A stretch of DNA of 64,000 nt from positions 1-64,000 of IMG/VR virus record IMGVR_UViG_3300037149_000105; one strand, given 5' to 3'. Numbering within the stretch: position 1 is the first letter of the stretch; each line of letters starts with the position of its first letter. The position numbers and the translations under genes were made by a program. Of the stretch, positions 2,977 to 59,172 are shown piece after piece. This DNA is from a virus. The notes below the pieces were generated by a model. It made no database searches. It saw only the letters and a program-made list of their open reading frames with translations, and was not told the DNA's origin.

Positions 2977-5900
2977 TTAGTAGAAAAGAAGCTGTCTAAA
3001 ATTCTCCAAGTTGGTTTCCCGATTGATCCAGAGGTAATTAAGTCCATCGTTTGTCTGAAAGATTTCCATTCGGTTTCCAAGGAGAGCTGTGGGGGCAGCA
3101 TAGGGATACATGCCCGCTCCATGAATATGGTTTGTCTTTAAGTCCATATAATACATTCTCTGGGTTGCTTCTTTGGTGAAGTAAAGTCTATCCTGACCGT
3201 CATAAGCATACATTGAGCCAGTAGACAGGGTTTCCGTCTGTGGAGAGGTTGGTATCATGTAAAATGTATCAGTCGTAATATCTAGTTTATCAAACCCAAC
3301 TGCTGCCCCGGCACGTGCCGCAATCCACCATTTTCCGGAGTTACTAGTATCCGATAAACCAAAAATACCTTCTATGCAAAAACCAGTTCCACGAACAGGC
3401 TGCTGGAGTAGTGCATATGAGGTGGCAAGAGTCACTGGGGCGGTTGTAATAGCTGTCATTGCAATAGTGCAATTGGTATTAGAGCCTACTGAGAACTCCT
3501 GAGATTGACCAGTGGCTCCAATCAACTTACATTTACGACCAGCAAACGCATTAACAACCCACATATAATCAAGGGCAGCATAGGTGAGGGTATTGGCTGC
3601 GGGGAGGGAGAGGAGGTATGTCCCAGTTCCACCATTCGCACCATTTGGCATCGTAGAGGTTAGCTGTTGGGTTATGACCGTGCCGACTGGGATGGCGCTT
3701 GTGGTGATGGCTTCAGCACCGACTGTGCCGGGGTAAGTAGACAGTGAATAAGTGGAAGACACAGCGTTAAGTGTCCCGGTGAGTAGACCTGTGATAGTCG
3801 TCCCTACCGGCACTGCTCCAGCCGTTACGATTGCTCCAATGGTGATGGCTCCCACGGCTGGGATTGTAGTTAGAGTCATTATGTTAGTTGCGAATGACGC
3901 CTGACCACCAAATGAGCCGGTTCCATTTGAAGCTGTGATAGCTCCGGCAACAATTGTTCCTGGTGAGGTTGATAAAGAGTATGTGGATGAAACAGCATTC
4001 AGGTTACCAGTGAGTAATCCAGTAATGTACGTCCCCGCTGGGATACTTGCAGAAGCACCAGTAATATATTGACCAACAGCTATTGACCCAAGAGTAGGAG
4101 CAACTGTTAAAGTCATCACATTGGTGGCGAATGATGCGGAGCCACCTGTTGCAAAGGTAAGATTTGAAGTTGTTACTGCCTGAGCAGCGATTGTTCCTGG
4201 TGAGGTTGATAATGTATATGTAGATGCGAGAACGTTTAAAGTTCCAGATGCAAGAGCAATAATAACGGCTCCATTTGCTGCTCCAGCGGACTGGATTGTT
4301 TGACCAATAGCAATTGAACCAGAGGTTGGAACAGTTGTAATGGTAGCTACGTTAGTAGCAAATGACATCTGCCCACCCGTAGAGCCAGTAGATGTAACCA
4401 ACATTCCTGGGTTGATCTGACCCTGTGGGTAACAGGTCACTGTTTCAGCCGCTATCGTGCCAACTCCAAAGTTAGAGATTACCGATTCAGCCGATTCTGT
4501 AGTCATTGCTGCGCTACAGAGATACACAGCACCAATAGTATTAGCTGTCCCAGAAGTTAAGGACACTATGGTTGTTCCAGCAGTAATACCAGTTCCTGAA
4601 ATAAGCTGACCAGGAGCGTATACACCAGTTGTGGGGACCGTAGTGATGGTCATGGAGGAGCCAGACAGAGAGCACTGACCACCTGCGGAAGCGATTGTTC
4701 CTTGGGGAGTCAATGTATATACGGCTCCAAGGGTATTTGCGGTTCCAGAAGTCAGTGCCGAGATGTAGGTATTGGGAAGAATGCCCACACCAGAGATAAG
4801 ATTTCCAACCTGGATAACCCCATTTACCGGAGGAACCGTAAGGGTCATTTGATTGTTGGCGAAGCTAGCGGTGAAGGTGACGGGGTTGATCGTCAGCGTA
4901 TTACTTCCAGCCGAGATCGAAGCATTTAGATTGCTTGCTTTTGTTGTGTCTGTTAATAGAGAGGTTGACTGAGTGCCAGTGGCAAGACCACAATCCATCA
5001 ACCCTGGTGTAGCTCTAGGGGTGAGGATGTAGCGAGTGGTGCCGGTGATGGGAGCGGTACCCGCCGCTACAAAAATTAATGCGTTGGCTGTGTTTGCCAA
5101 AACCTGAAGCACCTGTCCGGTGGCCAAACCAGTCGCAGCGGTCACGGCTGAAACAGTCATGTAGCACTGGTACCCGGCCCACTGATTTACTGTCCAATTT
5201 TTTGTGTAATCGGTGAGAACTGTGGTGTTTTGAACTCCAGCCACCGTATCGACGGCGGGGGTTCCGGCCATCGTATAGGTGAACTGAGTGGTTGAGGGGA
5301 CACTGTTGATTACGGCGGTGGTGTTGTAATTGGAATCTGTCATCCCCTTTACCGTGACCGACATACCTACCTTTAGGCAGTGTGGGAATGAAGTGGTGAT
5401 GGTGGCGTTGGTGGTAGCGTGAACCGCTGAAGCAATGCCAATTGGGCGCATAGTGCTATAAGTCACCACTGCGTTACAAGCTATACCTGAGTCCTGCCAT
5501 CTTCCTTCTGTCAGAAGGTCATCACTGTAGTTGTACATGAAGGTGGTGGCCTGCCCACCAATCATCAGGTAGGTCTTGTTACCATCTGGGAGGATGGAAT
5601 AAGTAGATGTGGTATCTGTGGTGGTTGCCAAGGGTTTAACTAGGGTTAAAGTGGTGGCAGTATTTGATGCAATCTGCATATACTGGCCCTTACCTGTCCC
5701 GAAGAGAATTTTAACCATAAAATTGGCCCATCTGTTTACTGGCCAAGTTTTAGTTGAATCGGTTAGGGTAGAGGTGCCTCCGGTGGTGAGGGTTCCGCAA
5801 TCATACCCTTCTATCACATAATCGGTGGTAGTGTCGGGTGGGGTGATGACGGTGGCAAAAGTTAGAACTGTGTTGGTGTTGGAGGCAATTTTTGATAACT

Positions 5901-8089: not shown

Positions 8090-10333
<2,244 letters not shown>

Positions 10334-42752: not shown

Positions 42753-44135
42753 TTGTTCAGAAAATCTTCGAAGGGAGTGGACTTCCGGTATCAACCTAAG
42801 ATGAAGAAAATTTCCAGGACTGTCCTTTTGACCTCCCCAGGTAGTTTTCCGGCACTGCCGGAGCCTGCCGGGTACTTCCGCAAGGGGGAGAAGTGGTTCT
42901 GGTACCAATCTGCTTCGACCGGAATCAAATGCGAGGGTGATTGGATGCATGATCGCCGCAGTAATGCGCTTCGCAGCACTGGCTCTGGTGGCATCTTTCA
43001 GGAACTTCGCCAGGAGACAGACTATCAGGATGAGGGGGGCAGCATCGTCTTCCAAGCACCCTTTGATGAGTCGGACTACTCTGAACGGACTCTGCGGTTG
43101 AGAGAAGTGATCAGGCTGCCCCTGGGGGCTTCGAGAGCCCTCTACCATTATTTTGACACCTATCAGGATGTATGGAATTGCTTGGTTCATCTAGACCGTT
43201 CGGGAGTCCTCATCAAAGCTAATACCGGAGACCCCTCAGAGAGAAAGATTCGTCGGGATTACGTCAACCGCCGCAGTCAATCCACTCACCCACTTCGTCT
43301 GAAAAAGCAATCCAGGGTGGGGTCCATTCCCATCAGTTCTGAAATTCGAACGGAACTTAAGCAGATGGTGGGTTTAGATTGGCGGTGCGTCATATCCATG
43401 CGGCTTCTTCGATGGGGGAAGAGGGTAATCTTAGCCTACACCCATAAAGAAACTAGGATTCATGAGGTCAACTTGGAACACCGCAGTATTAATTCCTGCC
43501 GTGACCCACGCTTATGTGATATGGGTATATGTTTCAGCCCCAATGGGATGACTGTGCAGATTCAGAATCCCACTGAAGACCGGCAGGGGAGCTTTGTTCC
43601 CAAAGCCAAACTCACCAAGCAATATATCAATCAACTTGTAGCTCAAATGGTTGGAAAGATAAGGGTTGTAGCAATAGACCCAATCTGCCCTAGCGGTTTG
43701 AACGACATTAAGACTTACCTAACACGTAAGCTCAGGGCTCTACAGGCGGAAGGTGCCATGGAGTTCCGATCACCCAAGCTGGTCTCGTTGGGTGCGAAGT
43801 ACAAAGACCATCCTCAGCATCATCCGCTGCACTTACATGTGTGGCAGAGGAATCTGATGAAGGAATGGTTTGACTACTCGTTAATCTTGGGACTAACTGG
43901 AAGGCCCGTTCTGGTTCGGGAGGTAAATGGAACTCTGATTGGAGGAGACAGCCAACAGGTTATAAATCCGCTTACCCGAGCGAATCACGCCATCCAAACG
44001 GCTTTGGCTAAGATGGACTTGTGGCACGGTGCCACATTCCTACGTAGCAGAAGCTGGCAAAGAGTGCGATCAGCGTTCAACCGTCAACTATGTAAACTCC
44101 AGTCAAAAGAAGAAAATAATCATGAGGATAAGTAG
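42753..44135 (+). CDS. Degenerate TnpB/Cas12f-like protein with extra N-terminal domain, probably nuclease-dead
   Basis: Collinear TnpB-like segments: YFDTYQDVWNCLV, PLRLKKQS, CDMGI...PNG...IQNP (RuvC-I), QYINQLVAQMV...VVAID (RuvC-II), LHVWQRNLMKEWFDY...GRPVLV; no CxxC zinc finger and no RD.NAA.NI; AGGAGG before TTG. Confidence 0.6.
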   Translation: MFRKSSKGVDFRYQPKMKKISRTVLLTSPGSFPALPEPAGYFRKGEKWFWYQSASTGIKCEGDWMHDRRSNALRSTGSGGIFQELRQETDYQDEGGSIVFQAPFDESDYSERTLRLREVIRLPLGASRALYHYFDTYQDVWNCLVHLDRSGVLIKANTGDPSERKIRRDYVNRRSQSTHPLRLKKQSRVGSIPISSEIRTELKQMVGLDWRCVISMRLLRWGKRVILAYTHKETRIHEVNLEHRSINSCRDPRLCDMGICFSPNGMTVQIQNPTEDRQGSFVPKAKLTKQYINQLVAQMVGKIRVVAIDPICPSGLNDIKTYLTRKLRALQAEGAMEFRSPKLVSLGAKYKDHPQHHPLHLHVWQRNLMKEWFDYSLILGLTGRPVLVREVNGTLIGGDSQQVINPLTRANHAIQTALAKMDLWHGATFLRSRSWQRVRSAFNRQLCKLQSKEENNHEDK

Positions 44136-49719: not shown

Positions 49720-49776
49720 AACTTCTCCTATACAAAACCCTAGTCAGTGCGATATACTGATTGTGGAGGAGAAAAC

Positions 49777-51927
49777 ATGAAACTGCAAGAAACCCAGAGT
49801 GCGGTGATGACTGGTGGGCTGGAAAATGCCCCTCATAAGTTCACCATTCAGGCAACGGCCAAGGCGTTTCAGATCCTGTCGAGTGGGCTCTACACCCACA
49901 AGATCAAGGCAGTGATCCGTGAACTGTCTTGCAATGCCTATGATGCCCACGTGGCGGTCGGATGTGTGGACAAGCCGTTCGACATTCATCTCCCTAACCA
50001 GTTTGAGCCCTTCTTCCGGGTCACCGACTATGGTCCTGGTTTGTCCGAAAAAGATATTTATGATATCTACGTCAGCTTTTTCACTTCCACAAAAATAGAA
50101 TCCAACGATTACATCGGTGCGCTGGGCTTGGGCTCGAAGTCCCCATTCTCCTACACCCAGACCTTCACCGTCACCAGCCGTTTTGACGGGATGAAGAAAA
50201 TCTACACCGCCTTCCTGACCGATGAGGGAATGCCCAGCATCGTCAAGATGTCGGAAGAGGCTTATGACGGTCCAACCGGTCTGGATGTCCAGGTGGCAGT
50301 CAAGTCCAACGACTTCTATACCTTCCAGACGGATGCGGCCATTACCTTCGTCTATTTCCCCGTCACCCCCAATTTCACCGGAGCCAAGGTCCGGATCGAG
50401 AAGCCAGTCTACTCAACCAAGGGGACCGGTTGGGCTATTCGTAAGGATGCCTACGGGGATGGTGGGGCCAGGGCCATCCAGGGAGTGGTCGCCTATCCGG
50501 TTCCCCACACGAACGATGCTCAGGCCGATGAGCTGCTTCGCTTGGGTGTGGATATGTTCTTCCAGATTGGTGAACTTGAAGTTTCGGCTTCCCGCGAGTC
50601 CCTGTCGATGAACAAAGCCACCTCCAAGAATCTGGCCGACCGGATCAAGATGGTCGCCACCGAAATTGGTGCGGAAGTCAGCAAGACCATCGCCAACGCT
50701 CCCACTCTGTGGGAAGCGGTCACGCTTTACAACGAACTGATGAAGAACAACTCCATCCGCTACGCCCTCAAAAACGTGGACATCATGTGGAATGGCCAGA
50801 AGGTTCCGGACTACATCGAAGTCAAGCCCCAGGACCACCCCACCCTGTCCCTGTATGCCTGTGAGAAGCGGGGTTATCGGCACGGTGTGAAGGAGACGAG
50901 CAACCAATTTGTCAAACCCCAGACTCATATTCTGATCCGGAACGACCTCACCAGGGGTTCCAAGGGTGTGCTGACCCGCTGGATCAAGCAGTTTGGCCAG
51001 GGTGGTCAAGGCACGGTCTGGTACCTGATCGGCCCTGGCTTCGGTCAGAAATTTGAAGCCGTGCAGGAAGACATCAATGAGTTCATTTCCAGTGTGTTGG
51101 GTGGACCGACTGAAATCAAACTCCTGAGCACGATGAAGGCCGAACTGCCTAAGATTGTTCGGACCGCCTCTGGCAAGCTCAAGAACTCTTTTCAGGTGTT
51201 CCAGATGACTGCTACGGCCTGGAAGGGCGCATGGGCTGAAGTGGACGAAGATGAAGACTTCAGTGGTGATCAATACTTCTACATCCGCACTTTCAAGAAC
51301 CAGCCCGGTCTCAAGGATGGCATGTCCTGCCCTGAAGACCACATTTCAGAGCCCCGCAGCCTGTATGGTCTCTGCAAGCTGATGGTTCAGTTGGGTCACA
51401 TGACTGCCGATGACCAAATCTTCAGCGGTAGCCCTCGCTTCATGGCCGAACTGAACCGGATGGACCCTGAGGAGCGGGAAAAATGGGTGGACCTGACCGA
51501 GGTGGCCATGAAGGCTTTGGCTTTCACTCCCACTGAACTGGAAGAACTGAAGCAAGCCACCACCGTCTCGTTCTACGATACCGGCCTGAAGACTCCTCGC
51601 CATAACCTGGAGGACACTCTTCAGTCGGTCGGCATCAACGATGACAATCGGACCATTCCGGCCATCGCTGACATCGAGAAAGCCTACAAGACTCACTTCA
51701 TCGCTGAAAAGATTGTTTCCTCCCATAAGGTTCGTCTCGAACTGGCCAGGGTGTTTGGCAAGAGCCCAATCAGTCAGAGCGGCAAGGCCATCGAGATGCC
51801 CAACCTCTCCAAAGCTACAGAGAAGTTTGGTCTTCTGGCCAGCGCCTTCACTCACTATGCTGAGTGGAGTCAGTTGAAGGAAGCGGTCAGTCTGATTGAA
51901 GCCCTGTTCCTTACCGAAAAAATCTGA
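49777..51927 (+). CDS. rIIA: rIIA-like protein with N-terminal GHKL ATPase fold
   Basis: ILSSGLY...AVIRELSCNAYDAH, DYGPGLS, GALGLGSKSPFSY, SASRESLS; adjacent to rIIB. Confidence 0.9.
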   Translation: MKLQETQSAVMTGGLENAPHKFTIQATAKAFQILSSGLYTHKIKAVIRELSCNAYDAHVAVGCVDKPFDIHLPNQFEPFFRVTDYGPGLSEKDIYDIYVSFFTSTKIESNDYIGALGLGSKSPFSYTQTFTVTSRFDGMKKIYTAFLTDEGMPSIVKMSEEAYDGPTGLDVQVAVKSNDFYTFQTDAAITFVYFPVTPNFTGAKVRIEKPVYSTKGTGWAIRKDAYGDGGARAIQGVVAYPVPHTNDAQADELLRLGVDMFFQIGELEVSASRESLSMNKATSKNLADRIKMVATEIGAEVSKTIANAPTLWEAVTLYNELMKNNSIRYALKNVDIMWNGQKVPDYIEVKPQDHPTLSLYACEKRGYRHGVKETSNQFVKPQTHILIRNDLTRGSKGVLTRWIKQFGQGGQGTVWYLIGPGFGQKFEAVQEDINEFISSVLGGPTEIKLLSTMKAELPKIVRTASGKLKNSFQVFQMTATAWKGAWAEVDEDEDFSGDQYFYIRTFKNQPGLKDGMSCPEDHISEPRSLYGLCKLMVQLGHMTADDQIFSGSPRFMAELNRMDPEEREKWVDLTEVAMKALAFTPTELEELKQATTVSFYDTGLKTPRHNLEDTLQSVGINDDNRTIPAIADIEKAYKTHFIAEKIVSSHKVRLELARVFGKSPISQSGKAIEMPNLSKATEKFGLLASAFTHYAEWSQLKEAVSLIEALFLTEKI

Positions 51928-51985: not shown

Positions 51986-53098
51986 ATGACCGCAGCACTC
52001 GCAAGCCCCAAGACCGGTGCTTTCATCATTGCCGGTGATTCCCTGGTCGTCGTGATCGGTGGGGTCAACTACACTATCAGCAAGACCAGTTGCCTTTACC
52101 AGCAAGTTAAGAACTGCGTGGTCCGTGGCAACTGGGAACTGGCGGCTTCCTACCTCGAACAGGCCGTCAATCTCAAGGGCGAGATTTGGTGGAACACTGA
52201 GGAGTTCATGGTCTACTACGGCCTGGAGCCCTTGCATCACAGTCTCGCTGACCGGCTCCCCCGGATGTTCGCTGAGGGGTTTGATACGACCCCCATGCTT
52301 AACTTCCTGAAGAATCTCTTTGCCAACCCGGCTGTTCATGCGATCAACGAACTCTATGAGTTCCTGGAGAAGAATGGGCTGCCCATCACCGAAGATGGCT
52401 GTTTCCTGGCCTACAAGAAGGTGCGGGAGGACTATCTGGACTGCTACAGCCAGAGCATCAGCAACAAGGTCGGTGAGAAGCCCAGCATGGATAGGGACAC
52501 CTGTGATCCTATCCGGACCAATCACTGCTCCACCGGCTACCATTTCTGCGGCCTGTCCTATCTGACTTGCTTCAATGGGGAGCGGGTGATGGTCGTGAAG
52601 ATCAACCCCAAGGATGTGACCTCCATCCCCAACGACTACAACTTCGCCAAGGGTCGCTGCTGCACCTACGAGGTGATTGACGAGTACGGCGGGACCGATG
52701 TCCAGCGGTACGAAGCTTTCTCCACCTCCGTGGCTCCGGGTGAGTTTGAGGAAGAGGAGTTCCAGGAAGGCGAGGATGAATTCTACTGCTCCGAATGTGG
52801 GGCTGAACACTCCGAGTGCTGCACCTGTGAACAGGATCAGGATGAAGCCGCTGGCCAGGAAGAGGTGGAGGAGCCCAACCTGTTCTCCGCTCCCAAAGAG
52901 ACGGACCTCTCTCCCATTCATAACCCCATCACCAAGGCTCGTGTGCTTCGGGGTCTGACCCAGGAACAGGTCGCTTCGGCCCTGGACATGCCCCTCCGGA
53001 TTTATGCGGAACGGGTTGAGGTTGAGGGTCGCCCTTTCAAGCCCTCTACTGTGGGTCGCATCCTCCAGGTCATCGAAACCCTGGCCGGGGAAGAGTAA
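51986..53098 (+). CDS. rIIB: rIIB-like protein with C-terminal Cys cluster and XRE-type HTH
   Basis: PITEDGCFLAYKKV, CSTGYHFC, VKINPKDVTSIPNDY...RCCTYEV; then ARVLRGLTQEQVASAL. Confidence 0.9.
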   Translation: MTAALASPKTGAFIIAGDSLVVVIGGVNYTISKTSCLYQQVKNCVVRGNWELAASYLEQAVNLKGEIWWNTEEFMVYYGLEPLHHSLADRLPRMFAEGFDTTPMLNFLKNLFANPAVHAINELYEFLEKNGLPITEDGCFLAYKKVREDYLDCYSQSISNKVGEKPSMDRDTCDPIRTNHCSTGYHFCGLSYLTCFNGERVMVVKINPKDVTSIPNDYNFAKGRCCTYEVIDEYGGTDVQRYEAFSTSVAPGEFEEEEFQEGEDEFYCSECGAEHSECCTCEQDQDEAAGQEEVEEPNLFSAPKETDLSPIHNPITKARVLRGLTQEQVASALDMPLRIYAERVEVEGRPFKPSTVGRILQVIETLAGEE

Positions 53099-53125: not shown

Positions 53126-53162
53126 GGGGGCCGGTAAATATCTGGTCCCCATTTTTCTTTTT
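53126..53162 (+). terminator. Intrinsic terminator after rIIB
   Basis: GGGGGCCGG/CTGGTCCCC stem followed by ATTTTTCTTTTT. Confidence 0.8.
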
Positions 53163-53243
53163 GTCTCCCCCATGGGTGAGTGGATTGAAACTGTTATGGT
53201 TAGACAAGTCTCAGAAGCATCACCCTTCTGAGTGGATTGAAAC
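53163..53243 (+). CRISPR. Mini-array of two type I-C-like repeats around a 16-nt spacer
   Basis: GTCTCCCCCATGGGTGAGTGGATTGAAAC (53163-53191), TGTTATGGTTAGACAA, GTCTCAGAAGCATCACCCTTCTGAGTGGATTGAAAC (53208-53243). Confidence 0.75.
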
Positions 53244-53259
53244 TAAGAAAGAGGCTGCT

Positions 53260-53451
53260 TTGCTCATACCACTTCCTCACCACAGTTTAAATCGTGAAAC
53301 TTCCGAACGTCTCCTTAAGCTCAGGGCATTGCTGCTCAAGATCCTTCAGGAGGCCCCCGATTCAGTTAGAGAAGAGGTATCCGAAAAGGCCCTCGCCATT
53401 TATTCCGCAATTCAGCAAGAAATTTTCAAGGAGCAATCAAATGGAACGTAA
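53260..53451 (+). CDS. Small helical protein (63 aa) directly after repeat 2
   Basis: GAGG RBS then TTG at 53260, in frame with track ORF 53122-53451; overlaps the ligase start. Confidence 0.55.
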   Translation: MLIPLPHHSLNRETSERLLKLRALLLKILQEAPDSVREEVSEKALAIYSAIQQEIFKEQSNGT

Positions 53452-54517
53452 ACTGGCTAGTATCCAACGCATCCTCGCTCTGGACCCCATCGAAGGGGCC
53501 GATAGGATTGAGGTGGCCACCATTCAGGGATGGAAGGTGGTAGTGCAGAAAGGACTCCACAAAGTAAGCGATCTCGTGGCATATTTCGAGATAGATTCAT
53601 GGGTGCCGACTGAAGTTGCCCCTTTTCTCACCAAGGTTGGACAGGAACCTCGTGAATACGAAGGGGTTCGGGGTGAACGACTCCGCACGGTAAAACTGAA
53701 GGGGCAGGTATCTCAAGGGATTATTCTTCCCCTCAGCGATTTTGCAAATCTTCCTCTCCCTCCCTACGATTTTCTCATGGGAAAATGGAATCAGGAGGGA
53801 CTGGACATCACCGAGCAACTGGGCGTCATCAAATATGAACCCCCAATCCCTGCTTGCCTCGCCGGTCAGGTCAAAGGTATGTTCCCCAGCTTCATCCGCA
53901 AGACCGATCAGGAACGAATCCAGACCCTTCCCGAGTTCTTCGAGGAATATAAGGATATGGGCTTCGAAGTCACGATCAAACTTGATGGTTCGAGCATGAC
54001 CGTCTACCACCGGAATGGAGATACCGGAGTTTGCAGCCATAATCTAGATCTCAAAGAGGACCAGAACAACTCCTTCTGGAAGATTGTCAACCGTCTGAAC
54101 CTTGTTGAACTCCTGAATCACCTGGGACTCAACGTAGCTATCCAAGGGGAATTGATTGGAGAGGGAATCCAAGGAAATCATGAGAAACTCAAGGGTCAGG
54201 AACTCTTTGTCTTCGATATTTGGGACATTGATGCCCACCGCTACATGACCCGCCAGGAGCGTCAGGATGTCCTCCAGGCTCTCGAAGCTCTCCTCCCCAA
54301 GGGGGAGCACATCTATTCCGTCCCTGTCGTCCACGAGGACATGAAGGTCTTCCAGACCTACCCAACAATGGAAACCATCCTCGTCTTTGCTGGAGCAGGC
54401 CCAAGTCTCAACGCTCAGATTAGAGAGGGGCTGGTTTTTAAATCCACCTCTCTGGTTAACGGCGAAACGGTAAGTTTTAAAGTTATAAATAATAAATATC
54501 TCCTGAAAGAAAAATAA
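53441..54517 (+). CDS. ATP-dependent RNA ligase, DRB0094/Rnl5-like family
   Basis: MERKLASIQ...IEGADRIE, YFEIDS, FPSFIRKTDQERIQ, KLDGSSMT (motif I), QGELIG, REGLVFK, SFKVIN; start ATG 53441 after AGGAG. Confidence 0.92.
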   Translation: MERKLASIQRILALDPIEGADRIEVATIQGWKVVVQKGLHKVSDLVAYFEIDSWVPTEVAPFLTKVGQEPREYEGVRGERLRTVKLKGQVSQGIILPLSDFANLPLPPYDFLMGKWNQEGLDITEQLGVIKYEPPIPACLAGQVKGMFPSFIRKTDQERIQTLPEFFEEYKDMGFEVTIKLDGSSMTVYHRNGDTGVCSHNLDLKEDQNNSFWKIVNRLNLVELLNHLGLNVAIQGELIGEGIQGNHEKLKGQELFVFDIWDIDAHRYMTRQERQDVLQALEALLPKGEHIYSVPVVHEDMKVFQTYPTMETILVFAGAGPSLNAQIREGLVFKSTSLVNGETVSFKVINNKYLLKEK

Positions 54518-54538
54518 ATATCAAACACTCCTACAAAG

Positions 54539-54567
54539 GTCTCTCCCACGGGAGAGTGGATTGAAAC
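54539..54567 (+). CRISPR. Solitary type I-C-like repeat
   Basis: GTCTCTCCCACGGGAGAGTGGATTGAAAC; stem CTCTCC/GGAGAG and the same 11-nt handle. Confidence 0.75.
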
Positions 54568-54584
54568 AAACCAAAGGTGCAGCC

Positions 54585-55142
54585 ATGACGAGTGGTAGTA
54601 AAAAATTTCACAAGAAGGCACTGGGGGATCAGGTGATCGCCGTCGATATGCACTTTATGCCAATGATGGCAGTTAGTCGTCGTCATGCTCTCAAGGCTCT
54701 GGCCACTGAGAGGGCTGAAGCTCTAGATCTGGAGACCTGGACTCGCAAGGCTCTCTATGAGATCACCGACATCCACGATTTTGCCTGTATTCTCTATCCA
54801 GGTGTGCAAGCGATCAAGGATACGAAGCTGAAACTCGGAAAGGGTTACAGGGGCATCCTTGAACGGGATGAGCACATCTGCCAGTACTGTGGTAAGAAGG
54901 CCAATACTGTTGACCATGTGATGCCCAAGTCAAGAGGTGGGGGCTCTGCTCCTAACAACCTTGTAGCTGCCTGCCTCGCTTGCAATCAAAAGAAGGCTGA
55001 TCGAACTCCAACAGAGGCCGGAATGCCTTTAATTCACGCGATTCATGCAACCCGGTGGAAACTGATGGAGCAGTTCCATGAACTGACCGTTAGCTGGTCA
55101 TATCGCAGAAAGAAGATGGACGAAGATGTCAAGATTGCCTAA
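54585..55142 (+). CDS. McrA-like HNH endonuclease with N-terminal V...D..F.PM..VS..RA-type domain
   Basis: RDEHICQYCG...TVDHVMPKSRGG....NLVAAC..CNQKK..RTP.EAGM; likely ATG 54585. Confidence 0.88.
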   Translation: MTSGSKKFHKKALGDQVIAVDMHFMPMMAVSRRHALKALATERAEALDLETWTRKALYEITDIHDFACILYPGVQAIKDTKLKLGKGYRGILERDEHICQYCGKKANTVDHVMPKSRGGGSAPNNLVAACLACNQKKADRTPTEAGMPLIHAIHATRWKLMEQFHELTVSWSYRRKKMDEDVKIA

Positions 55143-55635: not shown

Positions 55636-56755
55636 CATCCTCCCCTCCCTAAACGGAGGGGATTCCTAGCCGTAGAGTCTGATGTCCCAGACCGAGACGG
55701 AGTATATTTTGAGCAGCGTTTACATCTCTATTATGAGACGCTCCGCATTCAGAGCATACCCAATCTCTTACCGACAGCCCACTTAGTCCTTTCGGGCCGG
55801 TGAGGGCGGCACAGCCGCCACACCGCTGGGTTGTCCAAGCTTCATTAACGATTCGGACTACCTTGCCAAGCTTAATAGCTTTATAAGACAAGAAGTTCAG
55901 AACCATACTGATACCCGCATCCAAGGTAGATTTGCAAGCTTTCAAATGTAAATCCCCAACTATGATTAAATCATAGGAATTAATCAGATTTGTGGTCAAT
56001 TTGTGCAAATAATCTTTGCGTTGATTTTTGATTCGGGCGTGAATAGATTTTGTTTGATTCTTATGTTTAGCTCTCTGAGCGGTTGCAAGCCTAGCTTGCG
56101 ATTTGTAATAAAACTTTTCATTAGAATAACTGATCGAATCAGAGCTAGTCGCTATGGATTTCAAACCTAAATCAACTCCTACTTGAGTTTTAAACTCTAC
56201 CAGTTGGGAGACTTTCCCAATCTCAACTTGCAAGTTTATGAACCAATTCCCCTTGGAATCCTGATTAAAACTACCAGTCCTGATATCAGCTTCGCTGAGA
56301 TTAATGGCGTTATAATGAGAATCGAAGAATTTAAACTTATGTTTACAATAGATGAACAAGTTATTTTTAAATCTCAAGGCGGAAGCTTTGAATGGTATCC
56401 ACCCGAGAACGCATTTATAGCTCCGCCAGCGAAGCTTTTGTTTCTTGAATTGTTTGCGCCTAGTAATATATTCTTTACATATGGATTGGACGGTTGTAGA
56501 GTTCAAACCCAATTCGCCCGCACAGCCAGCCGTCTGGTTGTCAAGTTCATACTCGCTGGCCCATTTCGAATACTTCTTGAGTTGGTTATAACTCTGTTCA
56601 TTACAATAGTTCCATACCAGATTGACCGCAGAACTCATCCGAATCAAGATTTTTCTTGAAACGGAGTCCTTGAGTCTGTAATGGAGAGTAATAATCATGT
56701 GTGTATCTATTTAATACTCAGAAAGTTTGATTTTGCTCATGGCACAAAGTATCCG
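55632..56755 (-). mobile_element. Non-autonomous IS200/IS605-family element (tnpB only)
   Basis: Right end GAATCCCCTCCGTTTAGGGAGGGGAGGATGTCAA is clear; left limit inferred from TTAC at 56756-56759(-) and is less certain; no tnpA. Confidence 0.65.
55649..56698 (-). CDS. tnpB: RNA-guided endonuclease TnpB
   Basis: VNLVWNYC, VGVDLGLK, RKDYLHKLTT, CGGC/CSEC zinc finger, HNRDVNAAQNIL. Confidence 0.95.
   Translation of the reverse strand: MIITLHYRLKDSVSRKILIRMSSAVNLVWNYCNEQSYNQLKKYSKWASEYELDNQTAGCAGELGLNSTTVQSICKEYITRRKQFKKQKLRWRSYKCVLGWIPFKASALRFKNNLFIYCKHKFKFFDSHYNAINLSEADIRTGSFNQDSKGNWFINLQVEIGKVSQLVEFKTQVGVDLGLKSIATSSDSISYSNEKFYYKSQARLATAQRAKHKNQTKSIHARIKNQRKDYLHKLTTNLINSYDLIIVGDLHLKACKSTLDAGISMVLNFLSYKAIKLGKVVRIVNEAWTTQRCGGCAALTGPKGLSGLSVRDWVCSECGASHNRDVNAAQNILRLGLGHQTLRLGIPSV

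Positions 56756-56793: not shown

Positions 56794-59172
<2,379 letters not shown>

Follow-up and report, generated by a model that had tools for sequence, protein, structure and literature searches.

The first 64 kb of the IMG/VR virus record IMGVR_UViG_3300037149_000105 (147,410 bp), referred to below as the window, contain three short intergenic elements, c1, c2, and c3, which share the ends GTCTC...GAGTGGATTGAAAC, and a fourth element of the same kind, c4, lies further along the record. These units are look-alikes of the repeats of type I-C CRISPR systems, and three of them stand just upstream of the ribosome-binding sites of phage genes. The interpretation that we place first, with about an even chance of being correct, is that c1 to c4 are decoys for Cas5c and Cascade of the RNA anti-CRISPR (Racr) kind, carried within phage transcripts, and that cutting by Cas5c may in addition set the 5′ ends of the downstream mRNAs. 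The phage carrying the units is large and of the lytic type; because CheckV gives a completeness of 51% for the 147,410-bp record, the full genome probably measures about 290 kb.

Sequence and fold of the units

The three elements that the initial annotation had described in the window are indeed present, all on the + strand and with the common GTCTC...GAGTGGATTGAAAC ends, and a motif scan of the full record returned c4 as a fourth exact copy. The units and the segment between the first two are as follows.

53163-53191, + strand: c1, 29 nt, composed of GT, a 3+3-bp stem with one bulge, and TGGATTGAAAC; predicted Cas5c cut at 53180/53181
53192-53207, + strand: 16-nt segment from c1 to c2, with an extended -10-like box, TGtTATGGT (53192-53200), and TAGACA (53201-53206)
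53208-53243, + strand: c2, 36 nt, with an 8-bp stem and a 7-nt loop; predicted cut at 53232/53233
54539-54567, + strand: c3, 29 nt, with a 6-bp stem and a 4-nt loop; predicted cut at 54556/54557
94893-94924 of the record, outside the window: c4, 32 nt; predicted cut before record position 94914

All four units are intergenic and co-directional with their flanking genes, and the copies are spaced by 16 nt, 1.3 kb, and 40 kb. Each of the four, folded alone, forms a 2-nt 5′ overhang, a hairpin, and an 11-nt tail (the handle). The GT, the CTC/GAG stem base, and the tail are invariant, whereas the upper stem and the loop vary. The stems of c1, c2, c3, and c4 measure 6 bp with a bulge, 8 bp, 6 bp, and 8 bp, respectively, and c4 has an alternative fold with a 7-bp stem and a 5-nt loop. 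The 14-mer GAGTGGATTGAAAC has three exact occurrences, and five sites are seen when up to two mismatches are allowed, compared with 0.55 expected, a count that no shuffle reached; a search of the whole 147,410-bp record with looser handles and a required hairpin gave no further convincing copy beyond c1 to c4.

That the stems differ and still pair had been taken as a sign of selection on RNA hairpins, and two observations bear this out: helices extend past CTC/GAG more than shuffling of the variable inner segments alone would give (combined P 2e-4), and the orthologue of c3 carries a compensatory deletion of one pair. This orthologue, found in a relative with 87 to 90% identity (L005/L205), is 27 nt long and occupies the same place, 15 nt before the start of the HNH endonuclease gene; it retains GTCTC and GAGTGGATTGAAAC intact, but one T-A pair is missing from both arms, the loop differs, and the flanks diverge. 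A decaying array was ruled out, because genes separate the copies and the stems covary.

Several other readings of these stretches were tried and rejected. The ends of an IS200/IS605 element do not account for the units, which resemble genuine CRISPR repeats and are not contained in the nearby TnpB element. The TTGAAA within the handle is not followed by a -10-like hexamer at the right spacing, as a -35 box would be; a T4-type late promoter before c3 is unsupported because TATAAATA occurs once per strand, compared with 2.6 expected; and a 4-bp anti-Shine-Dalgarno pairing across c3, seen in one fold, was dropped because the relative does not keep it. Rfam gave no match to the window at gathering thresholds and none to the units at E values up to 1.

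Relationship to type I-C repeats

Arrays of the pattern GTCTC-N(8-22)-GAGTGGATTGAAAC were searched for in one genome per GTDB species. True arrays occur in many phyla, with repeats of 31 to 33 nt or of 37 nt, and in three genomes an array with the same ends lies 5 to 10 kb from cas5d. In a Coriobacteriales metagenome-assembled genome (MAG; L204), the array adjoins cas3-cas5d-csd1-cas7-cas4-cas1-cas2, and in a Myxococcota MAG (L046), a 37-nt array adjoins csd1-cas7-cas4-cas1. The natural counterparts of the units thus stand beside complete or nearly complete I-C operons, which supports the subtype proposed in the initial annotation. The 11-nt tail UGGAUUGAAAC, which directly follows the hairpin, is identical in c1 to c4, in the L205 orthologue of c3, and in the arrays beside the I-C operons.

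A type I-C repeat of about 32 nt consists of a 2-nt overhang, a 7-bp stem, a 5-nt loop, and an 11-nt tail and is cut by Cas5c at the stem's 3′ base (PMC8524198). Recognition by Cas5c depends chiefly on the stem base, U22-G23-G24, and the 3′ tail, whereas loop and 5′ overhang are not read (PMC8524198). The initial annotation, which gave an 11-nt handle and cleavage at the foot of the stem for Cas5c, agrees with this description. Judged from their sequences, the invariant positions of the units are those that Cas5c reportedly reads, and the retention of the stem base and tail is hard to explain without a reader of the Cas5c type. The overhang fits the I-C type in all four units; in length, c4 (32 nt) is canonical, c2 comes near the 37-nt class, and c1 and c3 have 29 nt.

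The window had been described as free of cas genes, and this extends to the whole 147-kb record (51% complete), in which no match to the Cas5d, Cas7 (Csd2), or Csd1 profile was found, the Csd1 search being one without a positive control genome, as its control matched nowhere. Likewise, no Cas5d, Cas7, or Csd1 match came from four further viral records that carry units of this kind, of which two are at least 92% complete; any Cas partner would therefore probably be the host's. No CRISPR-type array was found in the record, and among the first 10 of its 217 repeats the array-like ones are 45-nt tandem coding repeats. The units themselves have neither the 33- to 36-nt spacers nor the adjacent cas genes of an I-C array.

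Gain and retention of the units in related phages

For each site, just two diverged lineages were compared, and promoters were called by reading the sequence. In the alignment, L005/L166 (ligase 87% identical) and L167 (78%) lack c1 and c2 and carry at their place a TAGACA-N18-TATAAT promoter, which is flanked by the same terminator and the same ribosome-binding site, whereas c3 is kept in the 87 to 90% relative. Since L167 is equally distant from both other lineages and the promoter is found in sister and outgroup, the promoter appears to be ancestral and c1 and c2 to have been gained in this lineage. c2 occupies the place of the promoter spacer and the TATAAT box of the relatives, and TAGACA, the -35 box of their promoter, persists in the 16-nt segment. 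As we infer from its sequence, the TGtTATGGT box of this segment would direct transcription to begin at or near the first base of c2.

The arrangement of c1, the 16-nt segment, and c2 could also be read as a mini-array yielding a 52-nt short-spacer RNA similar to a CRISPR RNA (crRNA), of the Cracr or CreR/CreA kind, with which host Cascade would repress a host promoter (cas or toxin) without cutting. Two repeats do flank a short segment, and the promoter-like 16-mer, with TGtTATGGT and TAGACA, is what would be expected of an anti-promoter guide; moreover, viral Cracr mini-arrays, including those of type I-C and with shortened spacers, are reported in a preprint (bioRxiv 10.1101/2024.10.29.618823). 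However, 16 nt is half the length of an I-C spacer and below the approximately 22 nt discussed for Cracr spacers (bioRxiv 10.1101/2024.10.29.618823), no match with a TTC protospacer-adjacent motif (PAM) exceeds chance in the phage or the examined host loci, and in these loci no cas or toxin promoter was found that pairs with the segment at 9 or more PAM-proximal positions. TAGACA is more simply explained as the remnant -35 box of the ancestral promoter, and a mini-array is silent on c3 and c4, so that we consider this reading improbable.

The place of c4 is taken by a second AGAC-N5-CAGCAA...GTCT RNA-like module in relatives with 90 to 91% identity and by a plain hairpin lacking the handle in a 59% relative, and c4 itself is common to only one other contig, which is 100% identical. 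Sequence comparison indicates that c4 replaced another RNA-like module. At both sites where the ancestral state is visible (c2 and c4), the insertion ends 4 to 8 nt before a pre-existing ribosome-binding site. A structured element of the AGAC-N5-CAGCAA...GTCT type also lies 9 nt before c4 (record 94836-94884, L004 1426-1474, outside the window), behind a conserved TATTAT box and ahead of a Ro-like DUF2828 gene, and in the 90 to 91% relatives it forms a tandem pair. No Rfam family matches this element; a possible role is that of a small RNA acting together with the Ro-like protein.

The same alignments were used to examine whether the handle and the downstream leader could form a crRNA directed, via host Cascade, against sibling phages without the insert. 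The sequence 3′ of c2 and c4 is homologous to siblings without the units, as such a guide would need, but the siblings have TAA rather than the TTC PAM (PMC8406640) at the c2 site, together with two seed mismatches and an indel after 13 nt, and at the c4 site TCC occupies the register and guide positions 1 to 4 are mismatched. The idea thus failed at both testable sites; in addition, no downstream repeat would set the 3′ end of the guide, and we regard a weapon of this kind as very improbable.

The plain hairpin at the c4 position of the 59% relative fits with co-option, in which a motif derived from a CRISPR repeat now serves a factor other than Cas, for instance, as a stabilizing or translation-tuning hairpin or as the site of an RNase or RNA-binding protein. 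The position of the units in leaders, just after terminator-like T tracts, and the nature of the led genes, which concern RNA repair and RNA binding, are consistent with this. Co-option nevertheless seems unlikely, given that 11 of 11 tail bases and the stem base are identical to those of genuine I-C repeats in all copies and the orthologue and that the unit recurs in unrelated phages.

Placement of the units ahead of genes

The gaps between units and genes reported in the initial annotation were reproduced, and c4 follows the same rule. c2 ends 16 nt before the TTG of an open reading frame (ORF) of 63 amino acids (aa), orf63, which overlaps the ligase ATG (53441); c3, which begins 21 nt past the ligase stop, ends 17 nt before the HNH ATG (54585); and c4 stops 15 nt short of the GTG that starts a DUF2828/DUF7788 ORF. 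These three units end 4 to 8 nt before the ribosome-binding site. If units were placed uniformly in the intergenic regions of 161, 67, and 159 nt, the three gaps would all lie within one given 3-nt window with a probability of about 4e-5, indicating that the position of the units close ahead of ribosome-binding sites is constrained. c1 is separated from c2 by 16 nt and has no gene directly downstream. The description of the locus as an RNA ligase/HNH operon was loose: orf63 and the ligase are led by c2 and HNH by c3, but in a relative an opposite-strand gene splits the ligase from the c3-HNH unit.

Pattern scans of IMG/VR, covering the GTCTC/GAG and GTCGC/GCG classes, yielded 90 distinct lone units after arrays and duplicates were removed. 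Seventeen of these precede the first start in an ORF of 60 aa or more by 0 to 25 nt, compared with 4 in the antisense control (Fisher P = 0.004); 3 of the 17 belong to this phage's own lineage or to the record G003. Nine of the 17 gaps measure 13 to 15 nt, and many of the units have a sequence like a ribosome-binding site before the start. The survey as a whole suggests that the leader-embedded kind makes up about 1 in 5 of viral I-C units. About one third of the lone units (27/90; loci L227-L345) are 27 to 30 nt long, shorter than the sampled array repeats (31 to 37 nt); many of those of 27 nt come from a single metagenome, 3300045988.

In other very large viral records, none of which matched the Cas5d, Cas7, or Csd1 profile, the 13-mer AGTGGATTGAAAC has, with up to one mismatch, four sites in G001 (279 kb), four in G002, seven in G003 (485 kb), and two in G005, some of the sites in G001 to G003 being without a hairpin and some inside long ORFs. 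Of the 279-kb and 485-kb records, only the former showed a match to a phage protein, and a very weak one. The start codons of a TPR-repeat ORF and of a SET-domain ORF in G003 are each abutted by a unit, at gaps of 0 and 4 nt. No function is common to the genes that such units lead in different phages (TPR, SET, CZB, or no match). A further contig of 36 kb, L020 (IMGVR_UViG_3300045988_057279), carries on its minus strand at about 9765-9846 two I-C-like units with different stems, 69 nt apart, which form a two-repeat mini-array with a spacer of normal length.

The placement supports a reading, already raised in the initial annotation, in which processing or gating of the leaders is the main function: the cut by host Cas5c would create the 5′ ends of the orf63-ligase, HNH, and DUF2828 mRNAs, or Cascade bound to the handle would cover the ribosome-binding site, and expression of the led genes would then depend on active host type I-C proteins. 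In favor of it are the gaps of 15 to 17 nt of the three gene-leading units (chance about 4e-5), the insertions that end 4 to 8 nt before ancestral ribosome-binding sites, the replacement by c2 of a promoter conserved in sister and outgroup, and the survey (17/90 versus 4 antisense, Fisher P = 0.004). Read from the alignment, the predicted cut in c2 falls about 10 to 13 nt upstream of the inferred transcript start of the relatives, and c4 lies between the small structured RNA-like element and the DUF2828 mRNA, which a cut would part from each other. On the other hand, closeness to a start is partly to be expected because phage intergenic regions are short, approximately 4 in 5 of the surveyed lone units are not beside a start, c1 has no gene directly downstream, and the led genes share no function across phages. 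To our knowledge, phage genes that depend on a host immune enzyme have no precedent. We therefore treat gating as the main function as doubtful, although deserving more weight than the other alternatives.

Proposed function as RNA decoys

Viral solitary repeat units (SRUs) act as RNA anti-CRISPRs, and one of them, RacrIC1, has been validated and inhibits type I-C (PMC10651486). The suggestion in the initial annotation that the leaders may act as Cascade decoys therefore names an established mechanism rather than a new one. Applied to c1 to c4, the decoy interpretation would work as follows. The phage's own transcripts would contain the units, which lie on the coding strand a short way ahead of ribosome-binding sites; the RNA of each unit would fold into the hairpin with its 11-nt tail and be recognized by the host endoribonuclease Cas5c; and Cas5c, and hence Cas7 and Cas8c, would be drawn off genuine crRNAs. 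Cutting by Cas5c before 53181, 53233, 54557, and record position 94914 would be a side effect or a second function, freeing a downstream mRNA that carries the 11-nt handle 4 to 8 nt ahead of its ribosome-binding site. That the units vary in stem and in length (29, 36, 29, and 32 nt) may serve to fit different I-C variants of the hosts or to prevent recombination between copies.

Several observations weigh against the decoy interpretation. With 29 nt for c1 and c3 and 27 nt for the L205 orthologue, these units fall below the length of all sampled array repeats (31 to 37 nt), and stems of 5 to 6 bp may not be accepted by Cas5c. The stem of c1 is weak (-5.9 kcal/mol, z 0.18). The best edit distances between the units and array repeats are 4 to 9, in a comparison that covered only repeats fitting the end pattern in one genome per GTDB species. 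When 1072 spacers from arrays with these repeat ends were compared with the phage, only 14- to 17-nt matches at chance level were obtained, no neighboring gene matches a known anti-CRISPR family, and no canonical sigma-70 promoter lies directly upstream of the units, c2 having displaced the TATAAT box of the relatives. Finally, a pure decoy leaves unexplained the 15- to 17-nt gaps at three independent sites and the replacement of a promoter and an RNA module.

Genomic neighborhood

The genes and other features around the units are listed here.

49747-51927, + strand: rIIA-like gene (PHROGs RIIA, 5e-121)
51986-53098, + strand: rIIB-like gene (PHROGs RIIB, 1e-55), the immediate upstream context of c1
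53126-53162, + strand: hairpin and T tract resembling an intrinsic terminator (terminator scan), also in relatives (alignment); c1 begins at the next base
53260-53451, + strand: 63-aa ORF with a TTG start and an AGAGG ribosome-binding site 5 nt upstream; overlaps the ligase start
53441-54517, + strand: RNA ligase with an ATG start (PF21189, PF09414; phrog_968, 3e-87)
54585-55142, + strand: HNH endonuclease gene with an ATG start (PF01844, PF14279), 90% identical in L205, led by c3
After the HNH gene and before TnpB: 169-aa ORF
55649-56698, - strand: intact TnpB (OrfB_IS605 and a Cas12f1-like TNB domain), adjoining the HNH gene side
Downstream of c4, outside the window: DUF2828/DUF7788 ORF, 478 aa, with a GTG start (PHROGs RNA-binding protein; Ro/TROVE-like)

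With rIIA/rIIB, an RNA ligase, and a Ro-like RNA-binding protein, the neighborhood of the units resembles a counter-defense region. The 63-aa ORF has no family match in Pfam or PHROGs, but it is a real gene, since a counterpart in the relative L005 is 89% identical. In L005 (87%), a gene with a NUMOD3 motif that resembles homing endonucleases (5051-5881, - strand) lies between the ligase and the c3-HNH unit, and the ligase-HNH region is a hot spot for mobile endonuclease genes. The relatives of TnpB outside the phage's own kin have at most 65% identity and are found on phage-like contigs. In the PHROGs search, many large proteins of the phage had no match. An ORF of 460 aa (42753-44135, + strand) has no Pfam match, and large ORFs with 45-nt tandem coding repeats occupy 1-2963, 8090-10333, and 56794-59172 of the window, the last containing collagen triple-helix repeats (Pfam, 3e-50).

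Implications

Phage-borne repeat mimics are a recently recognized route to disarm CRISPR immunity, and the units described here show that mimics can keep only the bases reportedly read by Cas5c while the rest varies. Such units would escape searches for near identity, and the class may therefore exceed its catalogue. Their placement is constrained and was gained repeatedly, and the same bias appears in unrelated viral contigs, which raises the question of whether mimics couple phage expression to host CRISPR proteins. We tentatively suggest, as a less probable proposition than the decoy function, that some phages use host Cas5c as an mRNA-processing enzyme, with I-C mimics set upstream of ribosome-binding sites and in one case replacing a promoter. 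If so, cutting or Cascade loading would tie certain phage genes to host I-C activity by way of their mRNA 5′ ends, stability, or translation; coupling of this sort would be a new kind of host sensing and the natural counterpart of engineered repeat-hairpin insulators.

Comparison with known systems

SRUs were first catalogued by Faure et al. in 2019, as cited in Camara-Wilpert et al. 2023 (PMC10651486). Like Racr units, c1 to c4 are virus-encoded, intergenic repeats without cas genes that match the subtype of a host system, here I-C (PMC10651486). RacrIC1 lies 11 nt after acrIC5 and is co-transcribed with it as a bicistronic RNA (PMC10651486); as in the setting proposed for the phage units, it is part of a longer protein-coding transcript. 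The -10-like box that the same paper describes upstream of SRUs also has a parallel in our survey, in which a TAnnnT box ending 5 to 10 nt upstream was found for 17 of the 90 lone units and for 2 of 90 in the control window (PMC10651486).

c1 to c4 differ from known Racr units in number and variety, with four copies in half a genome, each with its own stem and lengths from 29 to 36 nt, and in lacking a recognizable acr gene nearby. Three of the units end 15 to 17 nt before a start codon, with the ribosome-binding site in the place of the spacer, whereas placement in untranslated or leader regions is not discussed in the Racr paper (PMC10651486). To be retained in the SRU search, a unit had to match a known repeat with identity and coverage of at least 90% and to be free of partial repeats within 100 bp (PMC10651486). 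None of c1 to c4 comes near an array repeat among those compared, which had the same ends, and c1 and c2, 16 nt apart, would be classed as not solitary by SRUfinder, c3 and c4 being lone; the four units probably fail the published filters. In the accessible portion of the supplement of the Racr paper, there is no unit with these ends and none of the related contigs by full identifier. c1 to c4 can thus be described as a stem-diversified, leader-embedded variant of SRUs.

The units share with the genuine I-C repeats cut by Cas5c the GT overhang, the hairpin, the identical 11-nt tail, and the cut site at the 3′ stem base (PMC8524198), but they are without spacers, array, and adjacent cas genes, and three of the four are of noncanonical length. 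The c1-c2 pair has the repeat-short spacer-repeat layout of Cracr and CreR/CreA mini-arrays (bioRxiv 10.1101/2024.10.29.618823). Its spacer, however, is only 16 nt long, and c3 and c4 are single units.

In synthetic biology, hairpins of Csy4 (Cas6f) have been engineered as insulators in 5′ untranslated regions. As proposed for the phage units, a repeat hairpin stands there just upstream of a ribosome-binding site, and a CRISPR endoribonuclease sets the 5′ end of the mRNA; whereas the Csy4 insulators are man-made and supplied with their own enzyme, the phage units are natural and would rely on the Cas5c of the host.

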